A DNA stretch of 64,000 nucleotides from the NCBI GenBank assembly GCA_016860985.1, contig BOKM01000001.1, positions 317,716 through 381,715 of the forward strand. Direction: 5' to 3'. Position 1 is the first letter of the stretch; the number at the start of each line of letters is the position of its first letter. Shown one piece after another: positions 8,721 through 63,704 of this stretch. The notes under the pieces were generated by a model that was given only the letters and a program-made list of their open reading frames with translations, did not search any database and had not been told where the DNA came from. The position numbers and the translations under genes are program-made. Source of the stretch: Patescibacteria group bacterium. GTDB taxonomy: Bacteria > Patescibacteriota > Dojkabacteria > GCA-002793355.

Positions 8721-8723
8721 CCC

Positions 8724-24136: not shown

Positions 24137-24138
24137 TT

Positions 24139-24768
24139 ATGGCACTCGGTCCAGGGCAAAGCCCCATAACTCAAGGTACGCAAGATATTCTTGAAGTAGC
24201 GGACATCATGAATGATTTGCTCATTACTCGAAATGGAACCGTTTGTTTAATCTTAAAAACTTCTTCAGTAAACTTTGACCTTTTATCCGAAGACGAGCAA
24301 GACATTAAAATTGCATCCTTCGGTTCTATGGTTAACTCACTCGACTTTCCTCTACAAATTCTTATTGAAACAAAGAAAATTAACATCAGTAAATATGCTG
24401 ACTTTCTAGATACAATGGACACTCCAGACCTTAGCCCCGGACTAAAGCGCCAATTTACGGTTTATAAACAGTTTATAAGAAACCTTATTACAAATAAGGA
24501 AATCCTCGATAAACGTTTTATGATTGTGATTCCCTATAGAACAGGTACCTCTGTTGCGCCAAACGCAACAATCGAGCAAAAACAGAAGCTAATCGAGAGC
24601 GCGACAGGCTATTTGTATCCAAAAAAATATCACGTGATAAAAATGTTAAAAGGCATGTCGCTTGAAGCTGAGCAGATGTCGAACAGCGAAATTGCCAAGT
24701 ATCTTTATTCAGTTTACAACCCAGCGGACTCAATCCGTTTAGATGATTTACCTCAAATATACGTATAA
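24139..24768 (+). CDS. VirB4 N-terminal-domain-like protein (first part of a split VirB4, or separate accessory)
   Basis: LLITRNGTVCLILKTSSVNFDLLSEDEQD resembles the N-terminal region of VirB4/TrbE ATPases. Its stop TAA is followed 1 nt later by the ATG (24770) of the ATPase gene. Confidence 0.45.
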   Translation: MALGPGQSPITQGTQDILEVADIMNDLLITRNGTVCLILKTSSVNFDLLSEDEQDIKIASFGSMVNSLDFPLQILIETKKINISKYADFLDTMDTPDLSPGLKRQFTVYKQFIRNLITNKEILDKRFMIVIPYRTGTSVAPNATIEQKQKLIESATGYLYPKKYHVIKMLKGMSLEAEQMSNSEIAKYLYSVYNPADSIRLDDLPQIYV

Positions 24769-26638
24769 TATGGCACTCCTCGACTTATTCAATAAAAAAA
24801 AACCAACTCAAACTGCAGAACAAGGAGCACAACCTCAAGTTGAGCAGCAGCAATCAGATCCAAACCCTGACTTTAGTATTCAGGACCTGCTTGCTCCGCA
24901 ATATTACGAGATTGATTTTAATCACGTGCAGATTAACAAGCGTTATTACAGAATTCTCATGATTACGGACTTTCCTCGTGTAGTCCGTTCTACATGGCTT
25001 TCTCCACTAGTAAACTTTGAATCTTCACTTGCAATCAGTACGTTCTACTACATCGTTGATTCAGACGAAGTTATTGATAAGCTCAAGAAAAAAATTGCAG
25101 AACTCGAAGCAACTCTTTCGACACAATACGAAAAAGGTGTAGTTCTTGATCCTAAGAGTAAAGTCGCCTATCAAGATGCCCAAGAACTTATCGACAATGT
25201 TGCATCAGGCAAGGAAAAATTCTTTAACATGGGAATGTATATTCGTCTTAATGCAGACGATCTTACAACACTTGAGAATATTTCTAAGAATGTTATCTCG
25301 ACACTCAAGGCAATCGGACTTTCTGCAGTCCCACTTACGCTAAAAATGCACGACGGATTCGATACAACACTTCCATATGCACTCGACAAAATATATCGTG
25401 TTCGAAACATGGATACGACCTCTATTGCAATGACCTTTCCCTTTGTTACGTCGGACCTTACCATGGACAGAGGAATTCTTTACGGCGTCAACATGCACAA
25501 CAACAGTATGGTTATTTTCGATAGGTTTAGCATGCCTAACCTAAACGAAGTAGTTTTCGCGACTTCTGGTGCAGGAAAGAGCTATTTTGTAAAACTTGAA
25601 GCCTTGAGATATTTGCTTACAGGTACGCAAGTGATGATTATCGACCCTGAAAACGAGTATGAAAAACTTGCTAAATCGGTAGATGGCGAATACATTACCT
25701 TTACTCAAGACGAAGGCGCAAAAATTAATCCCTTTGAGTTCCTAAAGTCTTCAAAAGATGGCGTAAGAAACGTCCTTCGCGACAAAGTATTAAGCCTCCA
25801 CTCGTTTATTAAATTACTCCTTGGAGAACTAACAAATGTCGAAGTTTCAATTCTCGACCGCGCCTTTATCCTTACGTATAACGAAAAAGGCATCAACAAC
25901 GACCCTGAAACATGGAATAACAAGCCACCACTGCTCGAAGATTTGTATAAGATTCTCAAAGGTATGGCAGAACCTGAGGCGCGAGCACTTTCAGGCCGGT
26001 TAGAAAAGTATGTTTTTGGAAGTGCTGCCGGCGTCTTTAACCAAGAGACAAATATCGACATCAAGAACAAATTTACAGTATTTAGCATTCGTGACCTTCA
26101 AGATGATCTCCGTCCAATCGCCATGTATATGGTGCTCGATTTCATCTGGACTCGAGTACGTGAAGATATAAGACCAAGAATCCTTGTTGTCGACGAAGCC
26201 TGGACCATGATGCAATACGAAGATTCCGCACGCTTTATTTACGGTATCGCAAAGCGAGGCCGAAAATATTACCTTGGGCTAACGACTATCAGTCAAGATG
26301 TTGATGAATTCTTAACGTCAAAATATGGAAAAGCGGTAGTAACCAACTCAAGCTTGTCGCTTCTACTTAAACAGAGCCCTGCTGCGGTTGATTTAGTCGT
26401 AAAAACCTTTAACCTCTCTTCCGGAGAGCGATCATTCGTATTGAGCGCTAAAACAGGAGAAGGGCTATTCTTTGCCGGAAGAAGCCATGTAGGAGTTTCA
26501 ATTATTGCAAGTAGAGCCGAACATAGACTTATCACCTCAAATCCAAAAGAACTCGCAAAAATGAAATCACAGAGTACAGAATTTTCTGAGGACGATATTT
26601 CAGAGGGAGCCTTAGTTTTTGAGCAAGGAAGTGAATGA
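24743..26638 (+). CDS. VirB4/TraE-like type IV secretion ATPase (probable true start ATG at 24770)
   Basis: Central VirB4 segment RYYRILMITDFPRVVRSTWLSPL; Walker A FATSGAGKSYF; Walker B ILVVDEAWTMM; sensor LTTISQ. Confidence 0.8.
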   Translation: MIYLKYTYNMALLDLFNKKKPTQTAEQGAQPQVEQQQSDPNPDFSIQDLLAPQYYEIDFNHVQINKRYYRILMITDFPRVVRSTWLSPLVNFESSLAISTFYYIVDSDEVIDKLKKKIAELEATLSTQYEKGVVLDPKSKVAYQDAQELIDNVASGKEKFFNMGMYIRLNADDLTTLENISKNVISTLKAIGLSAVPLTLKMHDGFDTTLPYALDKIYRVRNMDTTSIAMTFPFVTSDLTMDRGILYGVNMHNNSMVIFDRFSMPNLNEVVFATSGAGKSYFVKLEALRYLLTGTQVMIIDPENEYEKLAKSVDGEYITFTQDEGAKINPFEFLKSSKDGVRNVLRDKVLSLHSFIKLLLGELTNVEVSILDRAFILTYNEKGINNDPETWNNKPPLLEDLYKILKGMAEPEARALSGRLEKYVFGSAAGVFNQETNIDIKNKFTVFSIRDLQDDLRPIAMYMVLDFIWTRVREDIRPRILVVDEAWTMMQYEDSARFIYGIAKRGRKYYLGLTTISQDVDEFLTSKYGKAVVTNSSLSLLLKQSPAAVDLVVKTFNLSSGERSFVLSAKTGEGLFFAGRSHVGVSIIASRAEHRLITSNPKELAKMKSQSTEFSEDDISEGALVFEQGSE

Positions 26639-31532: not shown

Positions 31533-32130
31533 AGGAATATGCTTTGACCTTGATGGTGTATATTTCAAAAGCACTGGAATTAAAGGATTCGTTCAAGAAT
31601 TAACCAAGCTTTGCGGTGATGAGCAAAAAGCACTCCATGCAATGTTGTGGGATGAAGAAATTAATCAATTTAAGCAAGGAATATTATCCGAACAGGATTT
31701 TTGGAGCTACGTGAACACTTATCTTGGATTATCACTTACCGTTCCGGAATACGCTTCATTACTCGGTAAACATTACGAAATCGATTCGAATATTCAAAAA
31801 ATCGTGCAAAAAGTTAGAAAGCTCGGATACAAAACTCTAATTTGCTCAAACAACTACCCGACACGAATACGGATACTTCAAGAAAAGTTTGATTTTTTTA
31901 GCGACTTTGATGTTCGTATTTTCTCGTACGAAGTTGGCATTACAAAACCAGATATCAGAATTTTTAAAAAACTGATAGAAGCAAGCGGTTTGGAAGCAAA
32001 CGAGATAGTGTACGCAGATGACCAAGAAAACAAACTCACTGGAGCAAATGCGTTAGGCATCAACACAACACTCTATACGACTTTTGAGGCCTACCAGCAG
32101 TATCTTATCTCTCTAGGAGTGCTCTTATGA
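31519..32130 (+). CDS. HAD-superfamily hydrolase
   Basis: Motif I ICFDLDGVYF (DxDG); downstream motifs, including D near YADDQEN. Confidence 0.65.
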   Translation: MVMIKGICFDLDGVYFKSTGIKGFVQELTKLCGDEQKALHAMLWDEEINQFKQGILSEQDFWSYVNTYLGLSLTVPEYASLLGKHYEIDSNIQKIVQKVRKLGYKTLICSNNYPTRIRILQEKFDFFSDFDVRIFSYEVGITKPDIRIFKKLIEASGLEANEIVYADDQENKLTGANALGINTTLYTTFEAYQQYLISLGVLL

Positions 32131-32729
32131 AGCCGTTGTTAACTATCTTAACTCCTGGGTACGCACATCAGGGGAACGGCGATACTTACGTTGCTTCGCC
32201 GACCTGTTCACTTTTGCAATATAATGACAAGAATTACATTATCGACCCTGCTTGCAACCCCGAACTACTTCTCAGCGCACTTACTAAACATTCGCTGGCT
32301 ACAAACGATATTCACGCAATCTTTTTGACCCATTATCATCTTGATCACTTGCTCAACATCCGACTTTTCCCGCACACTCCGCTGTACGACGGCTCAATGA
32401 AATGGGATAGCGATAATGAAACTCCCTATACTGACTATTGGCTCACCCCCGAATTTAAGGTATTGCATACACCAGGTCATGCAAGTGAGCAATATTCATT
32501 GTTAGTCGATACTGAAAATTACGGATTAGTATGTATCGCACAAGATGTATTTTGGTGGGAAGATGGAAAACAGCGTTCAGATACGGTTTCCGACCTGCTT
32601 GACTTGGTAGACCCGTTTGCTGCAAATACCACCGAGTTAAGAGCCTCACGACAACTCGTTTTAGAAAGTGGCGCCACATGGATAATTCCCGGTCACGGAA
32701 CTATATTCAAAAATCCATATAATGGTTAG
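32127..32729 (+). CDS. MBL-fold metallo-hydrolase
   Basis: HxHxDH motif LTHYHLDH; additional His (HTPGH) and Asp ligands. Confidence 0.65.
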   Translation: MKPLLTILTPGYAHQGNGDTYVASPTCSLLQYNDKNYIIDPACNPELLLSALTKHSLATNDIHAIFLTHYHLDHLLNIRLFPHTPLYDGSMKWDSDNETPYTDYWLTPEFKVLHTPGHASEQYSLLVDTENYGLVCIAQDVFWWEDGKQRSDTVSDLLDLVDPFAANTTELRASRQLVLESGATWIIPGHGTIFKNPYNG

Positions 32730-42824: not shown

Positions 42825-43424
42825 ATGAAATACAAACTTTTGCCACTCCCCTATGCTTACAATGCTCTTTCCCCGGTTATTTCGGAAGAAATCATGACAC
42901 TTCATCACGATAAGCATCACGCAGCCTACGTGACAGGAGCGAATGCAGCGCTAGAAAAGCTAGAGAAAAACCGCTTAGGAGAACTCCCCGAACTAGATAT
43001 AAAAGCAACACTCCGAGACTTAAGTTTCCACGTATCTGGACATCTACTTCATGAACTATTCTGGAAGTGCATGGTACCAGCTAGCGGAGCAGATATCCCT
43101 GATGTAGTAGTACAGCAACTTAACAACTCATTCGGAAGCGTGGACGCCTTTAAAAAACAATTTAGTGCCACAGCAAAAAGCGTAGAAGGATCTGGTTGGG
43201 TAGTTTTATATCAAACGCCACAAAACGAACTTCTCCTATCTAGTGTCGAAAAGCACAATCTCAACCACCTTCCTGGGTATACTCCTGTGCTCGCACTGGA
43301 TGTCTGGGAACATGCTTATTACCTTGACTACAAAAATGATCGCGGAGCATATGTCGAAAAATGGTGGGAAATTGTGAATTGGCAATATCTTGCGACCTTA
43401 CTTACCACTTCGTCACATGCTTGA
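42825..43424 (+). CDS. sodA: Fe/Mn superoxide dismutase
   Basis: LPYAYNALSPVISEEIMTLHHDKHH and metal-ligand signature DVWEHAYYLDYKN. Confidence 0.9.
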   Translation: MKYKLLPLPYAYNALSPVISEEIMTLHHDKHHAAYVTGANAALEKLEKNRLGELPELDIKATLRDLSFHVSGHLLHELFWKCMVPASGADIPDVVVQQLNNSFGSVDAFKKQFSATAKSVEGSGWVVLYQTPQNELLLSSVEKHNLNHLPGYTPVLALDVWEHAYYLDYKNDRGAYVEKWWEIVNWQYLATLLTTSSHA

Positions 43425-50548: not shown

Positions 50549-50971
50549 CTAAGATTCTGCTCTGTCTGATTTTTTACCGTAGAGTGATCGGCCTTGCTTT
50601 CGGTCCTTTACGCCTTGAGTATCAAAGGTACCACGTACGATTGTGTACTTAACACCTGGCAAGTCAGGCCTTCTTCCGCCTCTAATCATAACGACAGAGT
50701 GTTCCTGAAGGTTGTGACCTTCTCCCGGAATATAAGCAATGACACGCGCACCATTTGAAAGACGAATCTTTGCAACTTTTCGTTGCGCTGAGTTTGGCTT
50801 TCTTGGCGTCTGAATGTACACCTTAAGACAAACACCCTTTTTAAAAGGTGCCTTTGTTTTAACAACTTTATTTTCAAGTTTGTTAAACGAGAACGCCAGG
50901 GCTGGACGCTTAGATTTTTTAACGCGCTTCTGGGATCGACCCTTTCGCACGAGTTGGTTAATTGTTGGCAT
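50549..50971 (-). CDS. rpsL: 30S ribosomal protein S12
   Basis: [12 protein letters not shown]...PKKPNSA; start overlaps the rpoC stop by 1 nt (TAATG). Confidence 0.95.
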
Positions 50972-53900
50972 TAGACCGATAGTTCTTCAAGCTTATCTAT
51001 CTCGCTGATTATAGCCCTTTTTCCCACTGGAATCAAGCGACCGATAATGACATTCTCCTTCAAACCACGGAGGAAGTCAGTTCGACCGACAACTGCAGCT
51101 TCAGAAAGGACCTTTACCTGTTCCTGGAACGACATCGCAGCGAGGATACTTTCTGCGTTCAAGGAAATGACGGTAACACCGAGCAATCTGGTGACATACG
51201 TCATCGGTTTCTTCTCTTGCTTTTCTAATTGCTCATTATGGAAGTCAGCCAAGAATCGGTTTACAAAGGTACCTCTTGTGTACCCTGTGCCACCTGCATC
51301 CACAATCTTTGCAAGTTTTGTCATTTGACGGGTAATAATTTCAAGATGAATATCTCGAAGGTTTACTCCATAGTCAAGGAAGACTCTCTGACACTCGTCG
51401 AGCACATATTTTTGTGCTGCGTAGAGGCCTTTGTAGTCTGACAATACCTTTGGATCAACGCTTCCACTCGTCAATTGCTGACCTCTTTCGACCGTATCTC
51501 CGTCGTGTACTAACACTTCGCCGTAAGATGGGATTGTAAGTGTTTCTTGCGCTTTTGTTGACCCAACCACATAAATGGCATTACCATTGATTTGGATTTC
51601 TCCATCAAATGGCGATTTAACTTCTTTGCCATTACTCATGGTAAAGATAACATCACCAAGTGATACTTCTTTTTTATCTTCTACATGCACTGTGTCATTC
51701 TCTTGCACAACGTACCCTTTTTTCTGTTGACGTTCACCGGCGATAATAATGTTCTTTTCGGTTACTTGTACTTTTCCAGAGATTGAAGCAAGAAGTGCGG
51801 GGAACTTTGGTTCACGTGCTTCGATGAGCTCAACAATACGTGGAATACCCGACGTAATGTCAGAACCTACACCACCTGCGTGGAAGGTTCGGAGCGTCAT
51901 CTGTGTCATAGGCTCAGAAATTGACTGAGCTGCGATAACACCGACCGCTTTTCCGAGTTCAACTGTTTTATAAAGTCCGAAGTCGTAGCCGTAACATTTT
52001 GCACACATGCCGACTGGTGCTTTACAAAGCATTGGTGATCGAACCCACACCTCGTTAACCTTTGCATCTTCGATTTCTTTTGCAAGTTCAACAGTAATCA
52101 ATTCGCCTGTTTTTGCAAGTACAGTCTTCTTTTTATCATCTGCAACGACATCTTGTGTTAAGAATCGACCACTAATTCGCTTTTCAAACGACATGTCTCG
52201 AATATCTGAGCGGCTGATAACATGACCGTGCCCTTCGTAACCACAATCTTCCATTCTGACGATTACATCTTGCGATACATCGGTAAGCTTACGAGTCATA
52301 TACCCTGATTGTGCTGTTTTAAGCGCAGTATCGACTGCACCTTTACGAGCTCCACGTGCAGAAACAAAGTACTCATAGGAGTTCAAACCTTCTGCGTAGT
52401 TACCCAAAATTGGGAACTGAACATAGTTACCCATAGGATCAGTAACAACACCCTGCATGGCGAGGATCTGCGCTGCCTGAGATTTGTCTCCGTTTGCACC
52501 TGCAGTAACCTGCAACTTAAGTGGGTTTTCGTCTTTCAATTCTGACCACACCAAGTTGGAGAGTCTTTCTGTTACATCTTTCCAGAGTTTAACAACTGCT
52601 CTTCCCTTTTCTTTTGCATCCAACATACCCATAAGGTATTGTTCTTGAATTGCGAGTTCTTTGTCCTTTCCTTCATCGATGATTGCTTTCTTCTCTTTAG
52701 AGGTTACAAGGTCAGTTTTTGACATGGTAAAGCCGGAGAGAGTTGCGTATTTGAAGGCAAGTCGCTTTGCTTCGTCAAGGAATTCAATTGCCTCTTCGAG
52801 TGTGTGAGAGATAACAATTTCTTGCAAGATATTGTTTCCTGCTTTCTTTGTCATAATCTCGTTTACAAAGCGGAAGTCTTTTGGTAGCAATTCGTTGAAG
52901 ATCAATCGACCAGCGCTGGTTACAACGGTGCCAATCTTTTCGTCAATAAAGACTCTGACTGGTTGTCGTAACTCGAGTTCTCCCATGTAGTGAGCGCGGA
53001 TTGCATCGTATCGAGTTGCGTACACTGGGTAATCTGTCTCGTTTTCTTTTTCGAGTTCAACATCAAAGCTTGTAAGGTTGTACAACCCAAGTACCATGTC
53101 CTTAGCAAAGGAGATGATTGGTGTACCGTCTGCAACCTTAAGCAAGTTATAACGTGACAACATCTTGTCTTTTGTTTCTTCCAAGGCTTCATTGCTGAGT
53201 ACCAAGAAGACTGACATCTGGTCACCGTCGAAGTCTGCGTTATAGCCAGGGCCAACCAACTGGTTAATACGGATTGCGCTTCCTTCTACCAAGATTGGTT
53301 TAAAGGCTTGAATGTTGTATTTGTGAAGCGTTGGAGGTCGGTTCAAAAGTACTGTTCGAGTACTGATGACTTCTTCGAGAATATCCCACAAACGGCTGTC
53401 ATATGCCTCGATAAGGTCTTTTGCTTCTTTGATAGTTGCTGCAATACCCTTTGCAATCATTTTGTGAACAACAAATGGTTTGAACATCTCTAAAGCCAAA
53501 AGTTTCGGAAGACCACACTGCTCAAGCGACATGTTTGTATCTGGAATAATAACGGCACGACCAGAGTAGTCGACACGCTTTCCAAGCAAGTTTCTTCGGA
53601 ATCGACCTTTTTTACCACGAAGCCCTTCTGTAAGTGACTTATAAGGAATGCCCATTCGGTTAAGAACTGGCTTGTTAAAGCGGTGCTGGTTATCAATCAA
53701 CGCATCAAACGCTTCTTGAAGCATTCGCTTTTCGTTTCGGAGGATAATATCTGGTGCACCAATTTCCATCAATTCTTTCAAACGATTGTTTCGGTTAATG
53801 ACACGTCGGTACAAATCGTTTACGTCAGAGATTGCAAAACGACCACCGGCTAACGCGACGATTGGTCGAAGATCTGCAGGAAGAACGGGAACAACTTTAA

Positions 53901-54849
53901 GAACTAGCCACTGTGGGTTAAGACCGTTTCGAAGGAAGCCTTCGACAAGTTTTAGTCTTCGCTCAACCTGAATTCGTGCTGCACCTTTTGTGGTGTTGTA
54001 CAAATCTTCGAGTTGCTGCTTTAACGCGGCAAGGTCAAGGTCTCCGAGTAATTTCTCGATTGCTTCTGCACCCATTCCAACCGTAAAGAATTTGGTTCCG
54101 AGTTGGATAAGTTCTCGATAGCTCTCTTCAGACACTACTGATTTGTAGTGTAATTCTTGAACTGAAACTTTGAGCGCTTCGTATTTCTTGGTGATTTCAT
54201 CTTTTGCATCAACAACTTCCTTTTTGAGAAGTGCATTCTGCTTTGAAATCATGTCTGCATCTTTTTCGAGTTCTGCTCTATCTGCATCTGCGAGTTTTTT
54301 ACTCTCAAGTTTCTTACGTGCATCTGCAAGTTTTGCACCAAGCTCTTGAAGACGTGTTGCGTATTCGTTATCAACTCGCTCAAGTTCTGACTTAAGAATT
54401 TCTTCAACCTCTTTAAGGGCTGCTTCTTGCTTTTCTCGATCAATTTCGGTGACGACATAACGAATGTAGTAAATGACAGAAACAAGCTTCTTTGAAGGAA
54501 TGTTCAAGAGGATTGCAAGTTTTGCTGGAACACCGTAGGCATACCACACGTGAACGACTGGAACGGCGAGCTTAATATGCCCCATTCTTTCTCGGCGGAC
54601 TTTCGCTGGTGCGATTTCAACACCACACTTGTCACATACAATACCCTTATACTTCTTCTTTCTGTACTTTCCACAGTAACACTCGTAATCTTTGATTGGA
54701 CCAAAGATTCTTTCACACATTAACCCACCTGGTTCTGCTTTTAAACTTCGGTAGTTAATTGTTTCTGCGGTTTGGACTTCACCGTATGACCAGGAGAGCA
54801 TATCTTCTGGTGACGCAAGAAGCAATTTAATTGCTGAAAAGTCTTGCAT
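50971..54849 (-). CDS. rpoC: DNA-directed RNA polymerase subunit beta'
   Basis: Zn-finger [20 protein letters not shown], catalytic NADFDGDQM, trigger-loop and jaw regions. 1292 aa. GGAGGAGGAG Shine-Dalgarno-like run upstream. Confidence 0.97.
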
Positions 54850-54851
54850 GT

Positions 54852-57800
54852 TTACTCCTCCTCCTTCATGTTAACTTCTTCTTCAGGCAACTCGTCTGCT
54901 ACGAGTACTTCCTTGTTTTCTGACATTGGAACATCATCGTCGTCTGCTTGCGCATCTTCTCGAATCAATTCTTCTGCAGCTTCTTCTCGTTCTCCTTTTA
55001 AGAGTTCGACTTTAATACCAAGAGAATTCAATTCTTTAACCAAGACATGGAACGACTCAGGAATATTGACCATCTTGATTGGATCTCCTTGAATGATGGA
55101 CTTGTAAGCTTGGGTTCTTCCTCGAATATCGTCTGACTTAATAGTCAAGATTTCTTGCAAGGTATAAGGAACTCCGTGTGCTTGCAATGCCCATACTTCC
55201 ATTTCTCCGAATCGCATACCACCGAGTTGAGCTTTACCACCAACTGGTTGTTGTGTGACAACAGAGTAAGGTCCTGTAGATCGTGCGTGCATCTTGTCTG
55301 CTGCAATGTGCTTTAAGCGGATGAAGTATCGCCAACCGACTGCAACTTTGTTTTGCAATGGTTCGCCAGTTCGTCCGTCGTAAAGAACCTGCTTTTCTAA
55401 TTTTTCGACACCAACCTTTTCGAGCAATTTTTCAAATTGCTCTTCGTCTAAATCTTCAAAGTTTGGAACTTCGAGCATTTCGCCTGCTTCCTTTGCAAGT
55501 GTTGAGTAGTACATTTGGTACAAAATACCCATGTTCATACGCTTAACCAACAACGGAGTCATAACGACATCTACAGGTGTACCATCGGCCAAGTACGGCA
55601 TATCTTCGACTGGAAGAATTGCAGATACTGTACCTTTGTCTCCATAGAATCCGGAGAATTTATCACCGTAGTCTACTCGCTTAAGCTCAGAAACCCATAC
55701 TTTAACTCTTCTCAATACGCCAGCTGGAAGTTTATACCCATCTTCTCGTGAGAGAATCTGTGTTTTTACGACAATACCTTCTGAGCCGTATGGCATTCGA
55801 AGTGAGTTATTCTTAACTTCTTTTGCTGATTCACCGAAGACAGCGTGTAAGAGTGCTTCTTCTGGAGAAAGCTGCTTTTCCGCTTTTTGCGAGATAATAC
55901 CTGCCAAAATGTCTCCACCTCGAGCAACGCTACCCGTTCGAACAATACCATCTGCGGTAAGGTTTCGAAGGAGTTTGTAGTTCAAACCTGGAATGTCTGA
56001 GGTAAGAATTTCTGGACCGGTTTTTGTCTCTCGAAGATCTTGCGTGTAAAGTTTCAATTGCACTGTGCTGAACATATCGTTTTGGATCATTCGCTCAGAT
56101 ACGACGAAACCGTCATCGTAGTTATAACCTTCGTAGGAGAGAACTGCGACCAATACGTTTCTACCAAGAGAAAGTTCACCTTGATCCATGCTTGGACCAT
56201 CGACCAGAAGGTCACCTTTTGTTACTTTTTCTCCAGGGCTTACCAATACTTTTTGAGTCATGACCGTGTTATCGTTGGTTCTAAAGAAGTTCTGTAATCG
56301 ATACTCCTTCTTTTCACCGTCTTTGTACTTCACAATCACATAGTTCGCGTCTGCATATTCAACAACACCATCGTGCTCTGCATATAATGCCATACCACTT
56401 TGTCGAGCAATTTCTTTTTCGACACCGGTTGCGACATATGGCGCCTCTGGGAATACCAATGGAAGCGCCTGCCTCTGCATGTTGCTACCCATCATTGTAC
56501 GGTATGAGTTGGTTCTATCTGCGAATGGAATAAGTGCCAAACCAAGTGAACCAATCTGCCAACCGTGAACATCTACATACTGAATTTTTTCTGAAGACTC
56601 TAAATGATAATCACCATCGTGTCGCGCAGTGATGATACCTGGCAAGTAGTTGCCGTACTCATCGTGTGGCGCACTATACATTGCGATGTATTTACCCTTT
56701 TCGTCGTGATAGCTAAAGTATTCAACTTCGTCGGTAAGGAATGGATACACTGCGATTACTTCATTCTTTGCCTTTGCAATTTCTTTTGCTATTTTTTCAT
56801 CGATAAAGGTACCTTTTGCAATTGTTTTCTTTCCGATTTCTAGATCTTCTCTCAAAATCTTATTGATCAATGCTTTTTCGGTGTTCTTTACTTCACTCTG
56901 TACTTTTCTAAACGGAGCTTCGATAAAACCATATTTGTTTAATCGTGCATATACAGAGAAGTGAGTGACCAAACCTGCGTTAATACCTTCTGGTGATGTA
57001 ACAGGACAAATTCGTGAATAGTGTGAAAAGTGAACGTCACGAACTGAAAAGCCTGCGTTCTTTGTTTGAAGACCACCTGGACCCTTTGCGGTTAATCGTC
57101 GGAGTTCTTCGATTTGACCGAAGATATTTTGCTGTTCCATGAATTTTGACAACTGAGACATGCTGAAGAAAGACTCCAACTGTGCAGAGATTGTCTTTGT
57201 ATTCATAAGGCTCGCCGGCATGACACCCTTTTCGTTTCCTAGTCGGCTCATACGATCCTTCACATTTCTTTCAAAACGAGTCATTGCATCGTTTGCAACC
57301 TCGAAAAGAATTTCACCAACACTCTTTACGCGTCGGTTCATCAAGCTATCGACATCGTCTACTGATGCCTTTCCTTCGTTTACTAATACAAGTTGTCGAA
57401 GAATTGCAATAAGGTCTTTCGTGTAGAGTTTTGGCTTCTTAAAGCTTGAGCCGAGTTTTTGATTCAATTGATAACGACCGACTGGACCGAGCGAGAATCG
57501 TCGTGAATCAAAGAAGAATCCTCTAACGTAACGGTTTGCGCGATCATAGGTTGCAACTTCGTTTGGACGAAGTTTTGCATAAATATCCATGACTGCTTCT
57601 TCTTTTGTTGTCGTGCGATCGTGTTCGAGCGTTTGTTTAATATACTTACCATTTGGATCAACATTCTTGAACAAATCGATAATTTGCTGATTGCTATAAC
57701 CCTTTAAGGCTCGAAGTAAGGTGGTTACTAGAATCTTTACACGCTGTCGGATAAGTCGAATAGTGACAACATTCTTCTTGTTAACGTCGAATAAATACCA

Positions 57801-58301
57801 TGCACCGCGTGCTGGGATTAATCGTGCAACGACTTTATTAACTTCACCTGCGGAGACCAATAATGGATTTTTCTCTTCTTGGAAAATGACACCTTCTGAT
57901 CGGACCATTTGATGTCGAACTGTACGAACAACACCGTTAATAACAAAGTGCCCTTGGTCGGTAAGAACAGGAACATCCATGAAGTAAACATCTTGGGTTT
58001 TGACTTCGTTGTCTTTAAGGTTGGTAAGTTTTGCCTTAACAAACATTGGTTTGCTATACGTAAGATCATATTCCAATGCCTCATTAAGTGTGACTTCTGG
58101 TTCTTTAAAATAGTAATCAAGAAGTTCCAGGCTCCACATCTTTTCAAGGCTATCCTTAATAGGACTTACCCCTGTAAGAAGTTGCTTAATACCTTCTTCT
58201 AAAAACCAATTGTAGGAGCGGTGATGTGCTTCGAAAAAGTCCGGGAATGAAAACTCGAACTTATTCTTTGCAAGGCTGAGTCTTTGTCGTACTTTTGCCA
58301 T
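54852..58301 (-). CDS. rpoB: DNA-directed RNA polymerase subunit beta
   Basis: Rifampicin-cluster region (GPGGL...), fork loop, C-terminal GQRFGEMEVWAL-type motif. 1149 aa. Confidence 0.97.
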   Translation of the reverse strand: MAKVRQRLSLAKNKFEFSFPDFFEAHHRSYNWFLEEGIKQLLTGVSPIKDSLEKMWSLELLDYYFKEPEVTLNEALEYDLTYSKPMFVKAKLTNLKDNEVKTQDVYFMDVPVLTDQGHFVINGVVRTVRHQMVRSEGVIFQEEKNPLLVSAGEVNKVVARLIPARGAWYLFDVNKKNVVTIRLIRQRVKILVTTLLRALKGYSNQQIIDLFKNVDPNGKYIKQTLEHDRTTTKEEAVMDIYAKLRPNEVATYDRANRYVRGFFFDSRRFSLGPVGRYQLNQKLGSSFKKPKLYTKDLIAILRQLVLVNEGKASVDDVDSLMNRRVKSVGEILFEVANDAMTRFERNVKDRMSRLGNEKGVMPASLMNTKTISAQLESFFSMSQLSKFMEQQNIFGQIEELRRLTAKGPGGLQTKNAGFSVRDVHFSHYSRICPVTSPEGINAGLVTHFSVYARLNKYGFIEAPFRKVQSEVKNTEKALINKILREDLEIGKKTIAKGTFIDEKIAKEIAKAKNEVIAVYPFLTDEVEYFSYHDEKGKYIAMYSAPHDEYGNYLPGIITARHDGDYHLESSEKIQYVDVHGWQIGSLGLALIPFADRTNSYRTMMGSNMQRQALPLVFPEAPYVATGVEKEIARQSGMALYAEHDGVVEYADANYVIVKYKDGEKKEYRLQNFFRTNDNTVMTQKVLVSPGEKVTKGDLLVDGPSMDQGELSLGRNVLVAVLSYEGYNYDDGFVVSERMIQNDMFSTVQLKLYTQDLRETKTGPEILTSDIPGLNYKLLRNLTADGIVRTGSVARGGDILAGIISQKAEKQLSPEEALLHAVFGESAKEVKNNSLRMPYGSEGIVVKTQILSREDGYKLPAGVLRRVKVWVSELKRVDYGDKFSGFYGDKGTVSAILPVEDMPYLADGTPVDVVMTPLLVKRMNMGILYQMYYSTLAKEAGEMLEVPNFEDLDEEQFEKLLEKVGVEKLEKQVLYDGRTGEPLQNKVAVGWRYFIRLKHIAADKMHARSTGPYSVVTQQPVGGKAQLGGMRFGEMEVWALQAHGVPYTLQEILTIKSDDIRGRTQAYKSIIQGDPIKMVNIPESFHVLVKELNSLGIKVELLKGEREEAAEELIREDAQADDDDVPMSENKEVLVADELPEEEVNMKEEE

Positions 58302-58320: not shown

Positions 58321-59268
58321 TTAATTTGCTTTAGGCGCGTCTGTGCCCAAATAATTATCAATAACCTTCTCCATATCTGCATAAGGCCAAGCACCAACAT
58401 AGGCCTTCCCAACACAAGTAGTTGGATTATCTGCAGCGAGTTTACACACCGCGAATGCCGGAGTCCCAAAATTTTGAGCTCCGAACTTATCACCCCACGG
58501 TGTTTTGATTTCTTTGTTAATTTGCTCCTGAACACGATCTATTGCTACAAAATCACGTTTTTGCAAGCAAGTAGTAAAATCAGAAGTGTTAAGCCCTAAG
58601 TCTTTTGCAATATTTATTAATGATGATTCTTCAGAACCTTTATTATCTATTCCGAGTCCATTACCGCTTGTTAATTCAAAAATCTTTTTGTGGTAATCAA
58701 ATCCTCTGCCTTGTTCTGCTGCACAATAAAACGCAAGCGTTTCGTTTGTTGCTGCCGGTTTATGGCTTGCAACAGCGATGTATGGGGCATATGCAAACTG
58801 CATGATGCCAGAATCAATATACTTTTTCTTAATCTGATCAAAGCTTGATGGCTTTCCATCTCCGTAACCGCTTGTAAAAAGTTTACAGTAAGGGCATTCA
58901 AAATCGCTAAACTCTACAAACATATACTTGGCACCCTCTTTCTTTTCTATAGTAAGGTATGAGGTCGAAACGGTTACATCAACCAAACCTTGCTCTAACG
59001 TATCTGGAGGTGTTTTAGGCGTGTTGTCTGAACTTTTCTTACCGAAAAAGGTGAATAAACCATACCCAACAATACCTACTGCGAGTACAAGAAGTACAAG
59101 CATGGGAAGACTAAGCTCAAGTTCTACTGCATCCATTGACTTTTGGGGAGGTGTCACATCTGTCGGACGCAATTTACTTTGTTCCCGAAATTTCGAGGTT
59201 TCTGGTAATGCGTTGGTGTGAATAGACATGGCTGAGGGGATTATACACTGCGATTGTGACGAAGTCAA
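58321..59268 (-). CDS. DsbA-like thioredoxin-fold thiol:disulfide oxidoreductase, membrane anchored
   Basis: TM LVLLVLAVGIVGYGLFTFF, then CPYC active site (EFSDFECPYCKLF). Confidence 0.7.
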   Translation of the reverse strand: MTSSQSQCIIPSAMSIHTNALPETSKFREQSKLRPTDVTPPQKSMDAVELELSLPMLVLLVLAVGIVGYGLFTFFGKKSSDNTPKTPPDTLEQGLVDVTVSTSYLTIEKKEGAKYMFVEFSDFECPYCKLFTSGYGDGKPSSFDQIKKKYIDSGIMQFAYAPYIAVASHKPAATNETLAFYCAAEQGRGFDYHKKIFELTSGNGLGIDNKGSEESSLINIAKDLGLNTSDFTTCLQKRDFVAIDRVQEQINKEIKTPWGDKFGAQNFGTPAFAVCKLAADNPTTCVGKAYVGAWPYADMEKVIDNYLGTDAPKAN

Positions 59269-59284
59269 CAGGCCAAAACAACTA

Positions 59285-59749
59285 CTAGTCCATTCCTAAC
59301 AATTCGCGGACACCACTTGAAACATTAGAGAGTACATTACCGCCATTTCTGTATAATTCAGAAACAATCGCCACACTCAACAAGTCATTATCTTTTGGTG
59401 ATTGATAACCAACCTTTCTTTTTAGATTAGTCATCAATTGTTCTTCGTCTACACCATCACCAAATATACTGTTACGTCGAAGAGGTTCAGCACATACACT
59501 ATCCGCAGCTACACTATCCTGAACTGCGATTTTTAGCATATTCAATTTCCCAACATGCTTTAGTGCCTCTTGTACTTCCAAGGTTTGCAAACCAAATATC
59601 GCCCCCGAATCACGCTCTTTGAGTTTGGCAATTCGCTCAAGTTCAACTCCAAGAGCTCCTAAAGAAGCCACACCTTCTCTAAATTTTACTTCTCCAAGCG
59701 CTCTAAACGAGCTTTCCTCTGTGGGTTCACTTAAATGTGGTGTTGTCAT
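59285..59749 (-). CDS. hypothetical protein
   Basis: 154 aa, helical; no motif. Confidence 0.35.
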   Translation of the reverse strand: MTTPHLSEPTEESSFRALGEVKFREGVASLGALGVELERIAKLKERDSGAIFGLQTLEVQEALKHVGKLNMLKIAVQDSVAADSVCAEPLRRNSIFGDGVDEEQLMTNLKRKVGYQSPKDNDLLSVAIVSELYRNGGNVLSNVSSGVRELLGMD

Positions 59750-59773
59750 ATCGAATTATACAATACCGAACCA

Positions 59774-60478
59774 TTACACTTCTACCTGTATACCTATAAC
59801 CGACGCCTCAACTGCCTGCTTAAAGGCTTCTCCCATAGTTGCATCACCAACAACTGAACCGTAATGCATAGGCACGACTACAAGTGGTGAAAGCGTCTGC
59901 GTTACACCAACGGCCTCCTCAAGGTTCATTACATATACGCCAGAAACAGGAACAAAGAGGACCTCTACCATTCCTGTAAGTGCCTCCATTTCTGGAATTG
60001 GATCAGAATCGCCAACAAAGTAAACTCCTACCCCACCAATATCAACCACATATCCTACAAATTCCTTTTCTTTTGGATGATATAAATTGCCCTGAGGCGA
60101 TTTTTTATCGATATTGTACGCTGGTACAGCCATTGCCGTAACTTGAGTGTTTTTTGTTGTTATTTTGTATTCTTCAAGTGGCACAACAGGAATCAATCTC
60201 TCTTGGTTTACATCTAAAAATGTTTGCACTTTGTCTAATATCGAGGCCGGAAAAACAAATACTGTCTCCCGTGAAGCAATCGATTGCAAATCTTTTGGTG
60301 AAAAATGATCGAAATGGTCATGGGTAATAAACACAATATCTGCCTTAATTTGAGATCGAAACGCGCCTTGCGCCTGAAACGGGTCAAAGACAACAGTAAC
60401 CGAGGGACTTTCAGCAGAAACCACTACTGTATCATGCTCATGCTTGGTAATTGAAAGATTTTTATAGGTAAAGTTCAT
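59774..60478 (-). CDS. MBL-fold metal-dependent hydrolase
   Basis: DIVFITHDHFDHF (HxHxDH) plus a downstream His. Confidence 0.65.
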   Translation of the reverse strand: MNFTYKNLSITKHEHDTVVVSAESPSVTVVFDPFQAQGAFRSQIKADIVFITHDHFDHFSPKDLQSIASRETVFVFPASILDKVQTFLDVNQERLIPVVPLEEYKITTKNTQVTAMAVPAYNIDKKSPQGNLYHPKEKEFVGYVVDIGGVGVYFVGDSDPIPEMEALTGMVEVLFVPVSGVYVMNLEEAVGVTQTLSPLVVVPMHYGSVVGDATMGEAFKQAVEASVIGIQVEV

Positions 60479-61119
60479 TCCTTTTCAGTTGTTTCCACTT
60501 TAGCCGGTCGTACACCGCGTGGGGCTTCTAGCTCACCAAAAAATACAGTTGGCTCAATATATGTACCTTCTAAAAGTTTATCCATACTTGTTTGTGGAGA
60601 ACGCAAATATCGGTACTCAATTTTTTCTGACAAAAGCATAGCAATTCGGTATGCTTCTTGATAACTTTCAACCAAGAAAATAAGCCGTGAAGGAAAGTTT
60701 AACCTTGAGTCAATATACAGCATGATTGTACCGTCTTTTTCGGCCATCCAATAGGTTTTCAAATCATCCCAACTGTACAAAACATCAAGTGTTCTAATGC
60801 CGATTTTCTCAATATTATGAACCACTCTCTGTGGCGGGATACTAATAAACACAAAAAGAATAAAGAAGACTGCAGCAGCAACAAGCGTGAGAACCGGCTG
60901 GCCTATCCAAAAGAAATATAAACCGAAGATAACGACCGCACTTGTAAACACGGCCTTTTGCGTTCCGTTGAAAATATAGGTTGGTCGGTCGTTTGCTTCC
61001 CAAGAAAAAAGTACCTTGTTGTAGTCGTATTTAGTAGCAGTTTTACTTCTCTCTTGCTCCACTACTTGCCTCAAGGTATTTTTTGTATCTGTTTCTTGCT
61101 TTGTACTTGCCATACTCAA
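60475..61119 (-). CDS. membrane protein with bacterial PH-like C-terminal domain (hypothetical)
   Basis: Two TM helices (FTSAVVIFGLYFFWIG, LTLVAAAVFFILFVFISI), then a soluble domain. Confidence 0.4.
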   Translation of the reverse strand: MSMASTKQETDTKNTLRQVVEQERSKTATKYDYNKVLFSWEANDRPTYIFNGTQKAVFTSAVVIFGLYFFWIGQPVLTLVAAAVFFILFVFISIPPQRVVHNIEKIGIRTLDVLYSWDDLKTYWMAEKDGTIMLYIDSRLNFPSRLIFLVESYQEAYRIAMLLSEKIEYRYLRSPQTSMDKLLEGTYIEPTVFFGELEAPRGVRPAKVETTEKE

Positions 61120-61492
61120 CTATACCCCAAATCAGGCAGTAACTCAATAAAGTTACCCAATAGCTTACAAGTGTAAATACATGCAAGACGAGCAAAAGTA
61201 TTGCCGCAACAGTTACTGTAAAAAAAGTAGTCCATACCCACGTTCCACTTTCTTCGCGCGATTCCTTTTTAACCCAAGAGACAATTGAACGAAAAAGTGA
61301 AGCAACAATAGCAAAAATAGCAGCTACGAGTAAGCTGACCAAGGAAATAACAATAAATATATTACCAATTTGGGGGACGCTATTTTGTGAATATGGAAGA
61401 AAATTGCCTGTTGCGAGCAGTGACCAGAAAAAATAACCGACTATCCCACCAACCGCACCAATAGAAGCAGTTGCCTGCTGCTGTGTAATCAT
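61043..61492 (-). CDS. small polytopic membrane protein
   Basis: Three or four hydrophobic helices. 3' end overlaps the next gene by 77 nt. Confidence 0.35.
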   Translation of the reverse strand: MITQQQATASIGAVGGIVGYFFWSLLATGNFLPYSQNSVPQIGNIFIVISLVSLLVAAIFAIVASLFRSIVSWVKKESREESGTWVWTTFFTVTVAAILLLVLHVFTLVSYWVTLLSYCLIWGIVEYGKYKARNRYKKYLEASSGAREK

Positions 61493-61968
61493 TAACGATT
61501 AAACAAGCTTATAAACTCTAGCCATGCAGCCTTCATGCCACCATGGCGCCTAATTTCGACGAGCGAAATGATCATAAGGAAAATGGTCAAAAAGGTTGAC
61601 ACGGTACACCATGAACAAAAAGCCTTAATAGGTACTATCTCTAGATATAAGAAATAAAGACTCGCAAGAATTCCAATCCCCGACATTTTCCATGTCGCAA
61701 TTCGCAAAATTGGGCGGTCATCAATCAACCGAAAAACAGTAATAAGCGCGTTCACACCATAAAAAGCGAGCCCATAGGCAGCAATTGGTACTGCAAAAAT
61801 CTTTGAGTATGGACTATGTAACACAATTTCACAGCCGCCGCCCGTAAGGCAACCAATAACTTTTTGGGTAATTGCGGTATGCCACATAAAAATTGACAGT
61901 GCCATTCCGGCAATATTAACGAATAGCATCCATTGCGTAAGTGTAGGCGTAACAAGCTTTATCTTCAT
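61492..61968 (-). CDS. vitamin K epoxide reductase (VKOR)-family membrane oxidoreductase
   Basis: Loop Cys pair CLTGGGC and TM-embedded CxxC (AFCSWCTVS), in a 4-5 TM scaffold of 158 aa. Adjacent to DsbA-like genes. Confidence 0.6.
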   Translation of the reverse strand: MKIKLVTPTLTQWMLFVNIAGMALSIFMWHTAITQKVIGCLTGGGCEIVLHSPYSKIFAVPIAAYGLAFYGVNALITVFRLIDDRPILRIATWKMSGIGILASLYFLYLEIVPIKAFCSWCTVSTFLTIFLMIISLVEIRRHGGMKAAWLEFISLFNR

Positions 61969-62007
61969 ACTCTATTATAATTGCTTAGTTAAAAATAGCA
62001 ACGAACG

Positions 62008-62904
62008 CTATTTGCCTAATTGCTCTTCAATAATGTTCTTGAACGCAACAATTGGGTACGCTCCTTCTACCAATCTGCCCTGCAAAACTCCGTCTTTTAC
62101 CACACCAATCACAAAGGTTGGTGTACCAAGCCCTTGGGTTACACCTTTTTGTACAATATCTTGCTCGAATGTAGAAAGTTCTGCGCTGTCATCTTTAACG
62201 CGATTTGCAGCCTCGGTAGTCTTTATACAATTCTTAATTTTGTTTGAATCGACTCCCAATTCACCAAATAGTGCATAAAATTGTTTGTCTTTGATGTTTA
62301 CCACAGGTTGATTATTATCGTCGTAAGCATTTTGCGTAATCGTGCTGCTTTTGGCAAAGAAAAGATTGTTAAAGCTATACATTTTTTCTGCACTGTAGAG
62401 TGTTTCTACACAATAGGCCGCTTGTGCAGAAATAGTTGCTGCAGGGTTGTGGAAGGCAAGAGGATAGTGTTTGTATACGAATTGAACCTTCCCAGTCTCG
62501 ATATAATCTTTATTGATAGTTGCAAAACTTTCATCATGGAACTTCTTACAGTAAGGGCAGACCAAATCGCTAAATTCCAAGACAACGACCTTTGCACTTT
62601 TATCGCCAAGTGTTGGGCCACCCTTAAATGGAATACTCACTTCTGCAAATTCATTAGCAGCAAACGTTTGAACGGTTGGAGTTGGTGTTGCACCGGCGCC
62701 TGTAGGGGTTACTGGTCGAGCCTTTAATCCGAAATAGAGTGCTGATCCTATTCCTGCAGTAAAAATGATTACACTCAACAAAATTGCCCATGGAAGAGAC
62801 AATCCTTTAAGATTTAACGTTACATATTCTGAAGAATCATTTTTTTCTACTGACTTTACTTCTCTTTTCTCATCTACTACTTTGGTCATGCCACGAGATA
62901 TCAA
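62008..62904 (-). CDS. DsbA-like thioredoxin-fold thiol:disulfide oxidoreductase, membrane anchored
   Basis: TM AILLSVIIFTAGIGSALYFGL and CPYC active site (EFSDLVCPYCKKFH). Confidence 0.7.
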   Translation of the reverse strand: MISRGMTKVVDEKREVKSVEKNDSSEYVTLNLKGLSLPWAILLSVIIFTAGIGSALYFGLKARPVTPTGAGATPTPTVQTFAANEFAEVSIPFKGGPTLGDKSAKVVVLEFSDLVCPYCKKFHDESFATINKDYIETGKVQFVYKHYPLAFHNPAATISAQAAYCVETLYSAEKMYSFNNLFFAKSSTITQNAYDDNNQPVVNIKDKQFYALFGELGVDSNKIKNCIKTTEAANRVKDDSAELSTFEQDIVQKGVTQGLGTPTFVIGVVKDGVLQGRLVEGAYPIVAFKNIIEEQLGK

Positions 62905-62969
62905 CTTATGAAGGCTACTGTATCAGATACCCTATATCACTGTCAAAGAAAAGCAGGTATAATCACCGC

Positions 62970-63704
62970 ATGCAACGTAATTATTCGTTATTTCTTGGAG
63001 GTATCGCGCTGCTGATTGTTGTTGCGATTCTTTCCCTAAACCGAGGAACAACTGGTGCGCTCAAACTTTCATCAAGCGAGGGAATTCCAACCTCTGGGAT
63101 CCTTGGAGCCACTGCGATTCCAACAAACGACATTCAAAACACACCTATTCCAACGACTTTTCCGACAGTATCAATTACGGTAACCATAACACCAACCCCA
63201 ACAAAAACTGTCGAACCCTCACCTTCGCTCAGAACACCAAGCCCGACTCAAACTCCAATGGTACCCACTTGCAGTGCTTATACCTCAAAACTCAAAATTC
63301 GAGCAACCGAATTTATGAATACACACAAGGCAAAAGACGCTTACGATGTGCTTGCCCTTATCTCTGATCCATACGACTCCGAAGAGCAAGAAGAATTAGA
63401 TTTTTGGCTCGGCACCGGTGATGAAAATGCAGGAGGGCTCTACCAAACCGCAAGCACTAGCTATACGACCACAAAATTCACCATCGGAACGTTATCTGAC
63501 AGAGGTGATGATCCACGAGAACGCGGAAACAAATCGTGCCAAATGACGATCTCCGAAGAACGAAAACAAATAGAGCCTGACCAAACAGCGACCACGGACA
63601 GCTACGCACGATATATTGATTTTTCACTCTCCCCAGACGGAACATTTACTTTGACTGGATTTAAATCTTCAAAAGACGGTAGTAAATATTCAGGATTTAA
63701 CTAA
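62970..63704 (+). CDS. secreted hypothetical protein with Thr/Pro-rich linker
   Basis: N-terminal TM/signal, PT-rich stretch, TATAAT box just upstream (aggtataatcaccgc ATG). Confidence 0.4.
   Translation: MQRNYSLFLGGIALLIVVAILSLNRGTTGALKLSSSEGIPTSGILGATAIPTNDIQNTPIPTTFPTVSITVTITPTPTKTVEPSPSLRTPSPTQTPMVPTCSAYTSKLKIRATEFMNTHKAKDAYDVLALISDPYDSEEQEELDFWLGTGDENAGGLYQTASTSYTTTKFTIGTLSDRGDDPRERGNKSCQMTISEERKQIEPDQTATTDSYARYIDFSLSPDGTFTLTGFKSSKDGSKYSGFN

Follow-up and report, generated by a model that had tools for sequence, protein, structure and literature searches.

The pairing of a DsbA-like oxidase with a VKOR protein is an already recognised and published kind of system, and standard annotation names its components. 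An MdbA-like thiol-disulfide oxidoreductase family is enriched in Candidate Phyla Radiation (CPR) bacteria (Méheust et al. 2019; PMC6744442), and the occurrence of MdbA/DsbA-like oxidoreductases beside VKOR in CPR genomes was likewise published in 2019 (PMC6744442). Here we describe a locus of this type in a 64,000-nucleotide stretch (in the following, the window) of contig BOKM01000001.1 (positions 317,716 to 381,715, forward strand) from a member of the Dojkabacteria. Seven co-directional open reading frames (ORFs) on the minus strand, among them two DsbA-like proteins (DsbA1 and DsbA2) and a VKOR protein, lie directly upstream of rpoB (54852-58301) and rpoC (50971-54849). We consider it quite probable that this locus encodes a pathway by which a CPR bacterium of Gram-positive type forms disulfides, and in which DsbA-like oxidases would be re-oxidised by VKOR. 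DsbA1 and VKOR belong to a block of five genes whose conservation and translational coupling throughout Dojkabacteria go slightly beyond the known pairing, as does an out-of-frame overlap between two of these genes.

The gene at 61492-61968 encodes a stand-alone, minimal VKOR protein of 158 aa, without a fifth helix and without a fused thioredoxin (Trx) domain. The protein matched the Pfam family VKOR (PF07884) with 79.6 bits (cutoff 27.5, E = 3e-22) over profile positions 2-133 of 134, and matched the NCBIfam archaeal VKOR equivalogs below their cutoffs only. Within its 90%-identity cluster, the NCBI pipeline name is 'vitamin K epoxide reductase family protein'. When PDB was searched with phmmer, Synechococcus VKOR was the sole match (E = 9e-11). 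Two cysteine pairs are present, C40/C46 in the loop motif CLTGGGC and C118/C121 in a CSWC motif at the outer end of the fourth transmembrane (TM) helix. In the alignment to Synechococcus VKOR (4nv6), C40, C46, S52, C118, and C121 correspond to C50, C56, S62, C130, and C133, placing all four cysteines and the loop serine in register. Hydropathy analysis located TM helices at residues 15-33, 57-75, 96-114, and 121-139. The loops rich in lysine and arginine occur on the side of the N-terminus, loop 2, and the C-terminus, and by the positive-inside rule both cysteine pairs are predicted to face outward. The loop between TM helices 1 and 2 that holds C40/C46 is itself poor in these residues. An AlphaFold2 model of the protein (pLDDT 72) displayed four long helices, and its top 14 Foldseek matches in PDB were all VKOR proteins from Synechococcus, human, or Takifugu (probability 1.00, query TM-score 0.55-0.68).

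An alignment of nine VKOR orthologues from related contigs, covering identities from 84% down to 20%, revealed C46, S52, C118, and C121 as invariant columns. The loop cysteine pair was likewise found in all nine sequences, although the first loop cysteine of the most divergent one, L014, was not aligned in the same column as the others. The spacing of this pair varies, with Cx5C in the window, Cx4C in most relatives, and Cx8C in L014. VKOR had originally been proposed from its two cysteine motifs, and the Pfam match together with the nine orthologues bears out both the family membership and the conservation of the cysteines. By profile, motifs, topology, and fold, the 158-aa protein is a member of the VKOR family; its activity towards a quinone and towards partner proteins is predicted.

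DsbA1 is encoded at 62008-62889 and comprises 293 aa from a conserved ATG. The ORF reaches a TTG at 62904 (62008-62904, 298 aa); the ATG at 62889, which orthologues share, is likely the true start. The protein matched the Pfam families Thioredoxin_4 (75.9 bits, cutoff 23.2, E = 5e-21) and DSBA (32.2 bits, cutoff 25.6, E = 1e-7). It is composed of a TM anchor (residues 25-43), a CPYC motif (C111/C114), a second cysteine pair (C160/C221), and a Thr-cisPro motif (T256-P257). Its matches in PDB were Wolbachia alpha-DsbA1 (3f4r, 1e-12), BdbD (3eu3, 4e-11), S. aureus DsbA (3bci), and 4pwo, termed 'DsbA' (4e-6). 'DsbA family protein' is the name given to one of the sequences in its 90% cluster. DsbA2 is encoded at 58321-59229 (302 aa); here, too, the ORF reaches further, to a TTG at 59268 (58321-59268), with the conserved start at 59229. 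The protein matched Thioredoxin_4 with 35.2 bits (cutoff 23.2, E = 2e-8), and its score for DSBA (22.2) was under the cutoff of 25.6. A conserved cytoplasmic tail of 40 aa is followed by a TM anchor (residues 44-62), a CPYC motif (C112/C115), and a cysteine pair (C169/C221); an extra conserved pair, C262/C272, is located right after the Thr-cisPro loop. Matches in PDB were BdbD (3eu3, 5e-5) and 4pwo (1e-3), and its 90% cluster has a representative annotated as 'DsbA family protein'. The predicted cytoplasmic tail (residues 1-40; window positions 59110-59229, minus strand) contains the pattern MSIHTNAxPETSKxRxQSKLRPTDVTPP. Its mean pairwise identity is 80%, compared to 74% for the catalytic domain and 57% for the TM segment and linker, a degree of conservation that would not be expected in a plain membrane anchor.

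In a joint alignment of 12 sequences (eight DsbA1 and four DsbA2 orthologues), the cysteines of the CxxC motif, a Thr-Pro about 140 residues downstream, and the second cysteine pair (C160/C221 in DsbA1 numbering) were invariant throughout. Within this alignment, the DsbA1 and DsbA2 paralogues share only 27% identity. Each protein has a single N-terminal hydrophobic anchor with the entire catalytic domain behind it, which according to hydropathy is predicted to be extracytoplasmic. The insert between CxxC and cis-Pro would be helical, judging from the family profiles. The closest solved relatives, Wolbachia alpha-DsbA1, BdbD, S. aureus DsbA, and 4pwo, place both proteins in the DsbA class and not among reductases of the ResA/CcmG type; BdbD and S. 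aureus DsbA are established oxidases. Thus, the two membrane-anchored, CPYC-containing proteins of thioredoxin fold that had been proposed to flank VKOR were recovered with their Thioredoxin_4 matches, anchors, and motifs.

In the pathway that we propose, unfolded proteins exported by the Sec system would receive disulfides from the two membrane-anchored DsbA/MdbA/BdbD-like oxidases. Reduced DsbA would then be re-oxidised by the adjacent four-helix VKOR. Its electrons would be taken up by the loop pair C40/C46 of VKOR, move on to the CSWC pair C118/C121, and finally reach a membrane quinone. What the analysis established is the assignment to families, the catalytic motifs, the topology and fold, their conservation, and the tight co-directional gene order; the electron path and the oxidase direction we infer from M. 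tuberculosis and Synechococcus VKOR and from the MdbA-VKOR system of Actinomyces. The expectation that VKOR lies next to DsbA-like partners that it is able to recharge agrees with the evidence from family, motifs, topology, and fold, the recharging itself being predicted by analogy. DsbA1 is more likely than DsbA2 to be the direct VKOR partner, because it is separated from VKOR by a gap of only 39 nt and precedes VKOR in all nine of the ten VKOR-bearing loci for which the upstream gene is known (L009 begins at VKOR). DsbA2 is probably a second, more specialised oxidase with an extra cysteine pair and possibly a promoter of its own.

All ORFs named in the original prediction are present on the minus strand where it had placed them, and the E-values of the family matches lie far outside what chance would give. 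Downstream of VKOR, the genes are tightly packed. The VKOR stop codon and the start codon of the following gene, tm4 (61043-61492, 149 aa), have one base in common (TAATG), tm4 and p200 (60475-61113, 212 aa, or 60475-61119, 214 aa) overlap out of frame by 71 nt, and the stop of p200 overlaps the start of the gene for a metallo-beta-lactamase (MBL) fold hydrolase (59774-60478, 234 aa) by 4 nt (ATGA). DsbA2 ends 19 nt from rpoB. From this arrangement, the four-TM orphan tm4, the pleckstrin homology (PH)-like protein p200, and the MBL hydrolase are predicted to be co-transcribed and translationally coupled with VKOR, the operon limits being inferred. Two sigma-70-like promoter matches were found on the minus strand, one upstream of DsbA1 (62917-62946, TTGACA-18-TACAGT with a TG element) and one just upstream of the DsbA2 ATG (59240-59268, TTGACT-17-TATAAT, 11 of 12 positions). 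The latter fits the 302-aa start of DsbA2 and a separate promoter for DsbA2-rpoBC. Both matches are weak evidence, as 15 promoter-like sites were found in the region compared to 20.3 expected from shuffled sequences; the promoter and terminator scan of the region was not above chance.

Between the MBL gene and DsbA2 lies an ORF of 154 aa (59285-59749) that was not mentioned in the original prediction. It had no match in Pfam or NCBIfam. The related locus L003 has the ORF, L013 lacks it, and in L002 an unrelated ORF of 100 aa takes its place. Since it is not conserved, we rejected it as a member of the system; it is probably a variable insert outside of it. Its position is a variable spot within an otherwise conserved row of genes.

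For tm4, four TM helices were read from the sequence, three by a fixed hydropathy threshold. The protein has a conserved G-x-F-L-P-Y motif in an extracytoplasmic loop. Searches of Pfam (E<=1, nine orthologues) and NCBIfam and a PDB profile search gave only scattered weak matches to TM families and no consistent family. A redox role similar to that of DsbB, MauE, or DoxX was rejected because tm4 has no conserved cysteine. The p200 protein, which contains no cysteine, is composed of a cytoplasmic N-terminus, a TM hairpin (residues 56-94), and a C-terminal PH-like domain in which a beta-sandwich capped by a C-terminal helix was found, as in the PH-like fold. It did not belong to any Pfam or NCBIfam family, and the window protein did not match DUF5673 (Pfam PF18923) at E<=0.01. 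Among 66 aligned sequences, 21 matched DUF5673 (best E = 1.3e-6), and p200 would thus be a distant relative of DUF5673 and at most a putative member. A weak match of p200 to AAC(6') was below the cutoff and was dismissed as noise. Among the NCBIfam results for the locus, matches to 'Rcas_1661 selenolipoprotein' fell far short of the cutoff and were disregarded. An exhaustive search yielded 378 relatives of p200, and a profile search of a word-indexed database at least 19; scans of genome contigs and of metagenome contigs returned two and three loci, respectively.

The overlapping reading frames of the two membrane proteins, which the original prediction had pointed out, are kept in relatives. 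The out-of-frame overlap measures 89-95 nt in L002, L004, L005, L010, and L013, and thus 71-95 nt over the measured loci. Within the overlap (61043-61113 in the window), the p200 N-terminus is conserved as K[NS]TLQQVxEQE[RK]AK, and the tm4 tail after KKYL is variable. As the p200 frame is conserved and the tm4 tail is not, p200 probably does begin at its long start, and constraint on the tm4 tail is probably slight. At this position, gene callers differ, with p200 called at 195 or 212 aa and tm4 uncalled in several contigs.

The MBL protein matched the Pfam families Lactamase_B_3 (81.5 bits, cutoff 24, E = 9e-23) and Lactamase_B_2 (5e-18). The NCBIfam equivalog PRK00685 was reached with 63.7 bits, under its cutoff of 144, and the NCBI pipeline name in the 90%-identity cluster is 'MBL fold metallo-hydrolase'. 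In PDB, it matched the uncharacterised protein 3kl7 (3e-24) and the UPF0173 proteins TM_1162 and Igni_1254. The metal-binding motif HxHxDH is intact (THDHFDH), and THDHFDH, GDSD, and PMHYG align with 3kl7. The protein contains no cysteine and no N-terminal hydrophobic segment, and an internal segment (residues 166-184) is barely over the hydropathy threshold; this UPF0173-like hydrolase is probably cytoplasmic. Because these three proteins have no cysteine or no conserved one, and a cytoplasmic location is predicted for their soluble parts, we do not count tm4, p200, and the MBL hydrolase as redox components. A second, unrelated MBL-fold protein is encoded elsewhere in the window (32127-32729, plus strand).

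Related loci were obtained from metagenome-assembled genomes of Candidatus Dojkabacteria (WS6). The whole block DsbA1-VKOR-tm4-p200-MBL occurs in L002-L008 and L013, although in L005 the contig ends within DsbA1; L009 starts at VKOR. In every related locus with the block, tm4 is present, also where gene callers had missed it. The downstream flank varies; in some loci it consists of DsbA2-rpoB, and in L005, L007, and L010 a gene for an extracytoplasmic function (ECF) sigma factor follows MBL and DsbA2 is missing from the block. L010 (4544-7393 of a 253-kb contig) encodes a DsbA1 with a CIFC motif followed directly by tm4-p200-MBL, and there is no VKOR in the block. Downstream of it, next to the ECF sigma factor, L010 encodes a surface protein of 1443 aa. 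In the divergent Dojkabacterium of L014 (6932-8657, GCA_016931155), a TM-anchored Trx-like protein of 137 aa (WCSFC), a VKOR of 164 aa (loop Cx8C, CINC), and a p200-like protein (25% identity) are encoded in this order; tm4 and MBL are absent. Two apparent tRNA genes, as judged by eye, follow the p200-like gene of L014, and a restriction-modification pair and a gene for a PycTM-domain protein lie just upstream.

The original prediction had assumed a genome with many cysteine-containing surface proteins. This was not borne out in the window, where predicted exported proteins contain 0.64% cysteine compared to 0.70% in cytoplasmic proteins. Among 14 proteins predicted to be exported or anchored, eight have an even number of cysteines, two, including the sortase, an odd number, and four none, compared to 13 even and 18 odd among cytoplasmic proteins. 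This bias towards even numbers (Fisher p = 0.067; 0.13 if both DsbAs are excluded) is in favour of oxidative folding but suggestive only. Divergent from DsbA1, a protein of 244 aa is encoded on the plus strand (62970-63704) that has a TM anchor, a Pro/Thr-rich linker, and two cysteines, C101 and C190, which are invariant in six orthologues. The gene is kept beside DsbA1 in L002, L004, L006, L007, and L013. The protein could be a DsbA substrate; it belongs to no family, and a match to AbiEii was below the cutoff and dismissed as noise. The content of the window is otherwise typical of CPR. It comprises a sortase, a protein of the LytR family, type IV components similar to PrgI/VirB4, and large surface proteins, with little in the way of metabolism. 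Together with the 244-aa neighbour, the sortase, the LytR-family protein, and the large surface proteins are plausible substrates or clients. Within 6553-12095 and 23318-26638, the sortase, a solute-binding protein, and a surface protein of 1123 aa with an immunoglobulin-like domain are grouped together, and the PrgI/VirB4-like type IV secretion segment is separate; these, too, could be clients of the disulfide system. A gene for an Fe/Mn superoxide dismutase (42825-43424, plus strand) is a hint of exposure to oxygen.

Several observations weigh against a disulfide-forming pathway driven by VKOR. The even-cysteine bias among exported proteins is not significant (p = 0.067, and 0.13 when the DsbAs are left out), and the block of L010 suggests that re-oxidation of DsbA may not strictly depend on an adjacent VKOR. 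VKOR might replace DsbB; a Pfam scan of 58 ORFs of the 64-kb window gave no DsbB-family match. A further objection concerns the electron acceptor. CPR bacteria, including the Dojkabacteria analysed, have been reported to be without quinones and an electron transport chain, including respiratory complexes (PMC5113843). The same puzzle is posed by clostridial VKORs, for which the authors favour quinones scavenged from neighbouring organisms (PMC12453122). The VKOR of the window might therefore not use a quinone at all, but another acceptor such as a low-molecular-weight disulfide or oxygen via an unknown carrier, or it might be a relic of low activity. We regard this as quite improbable, as the strict conservation of the four cysteines, the loop serine, and the four-helix bundle in diverged orthologues speaks for a functional enzyme of the ordinary kind. 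CPR episymbionts, moreover, presumably rely on their hosts for lipids. Since CPR bacteria are reported neither to make quinones nor to respire, they probably scavenge the quinone from the host or the community, as has been suggested in the literature for the clostridial VKORs. The roles of the two oxidases might also be split, so that DsbA1 alone uses VKOR and DsbA2, not re-oxidised by VKOR, acts as a substrate-specific oxidase or as an enzyme of the isomerase/reductase type. The low identity of the paralogues, the C262/C272 pair, the highly conserved cytoplasmic tail, and the strong promoter-like site in front of DsbA2 are consistent with such a division, as is the absence of DsbA2 from the block in the three loci where a sigma factor gene follows MBL. 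However, DsbA2 has the same CPYC and Thr-cisPro motifs, and its CxxC and cis-Pro are separated by an insertion of the DsbA type. A dimerisation domain like that of DsbC/DsbG was not detected, and no supplier of reductant of the CcdA/DsbD type was found among the window ORFs. A division of this kind is possible but doubtful, and we favour a pathway in which both proteins function as oxidases.

The role of tm4, p200, and MBL is a related matter. The original prediction had suggested a functional link of the MBL hydrolase and the two membrane proteins to the redox genes; the conserved, coupled gene order in Dojkabacteria agrees with this, and nothing beyond gene order was found in its favour. If DsbA1-VKOR-tm4-p200-MBL were one functional unit, the three proteins would be accessory factors that capture, process, or present a host-derived lipophilic acceptor, or that scaffold VKOR. 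In line with such a unit, the block is kept in loci in which identity drops to 48% for VKOR and to 34% for DsbA1 while the downstream flank changes, and overlaps of stop and start codons join VKOR, tm4, p200, and MBL. Further, no genes of the block are better conserved than p200 and MBL, with identities of 59-62% and 64-69% in L006/L007 compared to 48-52% for VKOR, and the very divergent L014 again has VKOR directly followed by a p200-like gene. On the other hand, conserved gene order is weak evidence for a functional link here, because unrelated neighbours are syntenic in the lineage as well, namely a major facilitator superfamily (MFS) transporter and rpoB/rpoC, together with the gene for the 244-aa protein. 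In addition, the p200-like genes of L016, L018, and L020, three metagenomic contigs of unassigned lineage, do not adjoin VKOR, DsbA, or MBL genes, L014 is without tm4 and MBL, and L010 is without VKOR. The three proteins also lack conserved cysteines, cannot be assigned to a redox or lipid-binding family, and are predicted to expose their soluble parts on the cytoplasmic side. We thus consider a single functional unit unlikely. Still less credible, in our view, is a five-gene operon of Dojkabacteria in which tm4, p200, and MBL acquire or process a host-derived lipophilic acceptor or are otherwise needed for VKOR/DsbA; if true, the three would be new accessory components of the disulfide-forming pathway.

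The disulfide-forming pathway that we favour adds one more well-supported example of DsbA/MdbA-VKOR in CPR, whose presumed clients are pilins, sortase substrates, and large surface proteins involved in episymbiosis. If the quinone is derived from the host, oxidative folding of the surface proteins of the symbiont would depend on the host. Points of interest are the electron acceptor of VKOR, the conserved and coupled tm4, p200, and MBL genes, and the long out-of-frame overlap of tm4 and p200. The locus raises the question of a link between the four-TM orphan, the PH-like protein, and the MBL hydrolase on the one hand and the re-oxidation of VKOR without quinone synthesis on the other.

Among described systems, Synechococcus VKOR (3kp9, 4nv2, 4nv5, 4nv6) is both the best sequence match and the best fold match. 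It differs by an additional, fifth TM helix and by a Trx-like domain fused to it, whereas the window VKOR is a four-helix protein with separate partners of the DsbA type. In L014, a separate small TM-anchored Trx-like protein (WCSFC) is encoded upstream of VKOR in place of the fused domain. For both window DsbAs, the solved structures closest in sequence are BdbD, S. aureus DsbA, and Wolbachia alpha-DsbA1, from the DsbA class of Gram-positives and alpha-proteobacteria. CPYC, the active-site sequence of the window DsbAs, is also that of S. aureus DsbA, and their second cysteine pair presumably resembles the second disulfide of Wolbachia alpha-DsbA1. BdbD, however, is recharged by BdbC, a protein of the DsbB type, and no membrane partner is known for S. 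aureus DsbA, while here VKOR adjoins. The clostridial DsbA-VKOR pairs (PMC12453122) share with the locus the occurrence of VKOR in organisms that do not make quinones; they belong to another phylum, and no tm4, p200, or MBL neighbours have been reported for them (PMC12453122). The actinobacterial MdbA/DsbA-VKOR systems of Actinomyces oris and M. tuberculosis resemble the locus in their anchored CxxC/Thr-cisPro oxidase with a separate, stand-alone VKOR, in the VKOR loop cysteine pair and CxxC of the fourth TM helix, and in the Gram-positive-type envelope; a sortase is encoded in the window as well. The connection of these systems to CPR had been made before (PMC6744442). Sequence similarity of the window DsbAs to the solved DsbA-type protein 4pwo is low in this comparison (E = 4e-6 and 1e-3), and Dojkabacteria are reported to lack quinone synthesis (PMC5113843). 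In contrast to the actinobacterial arrangement, two paralogous oxidases flank the cluster in the Dojkabacterium, and VKOR is coupled to three uncharacterised genes.

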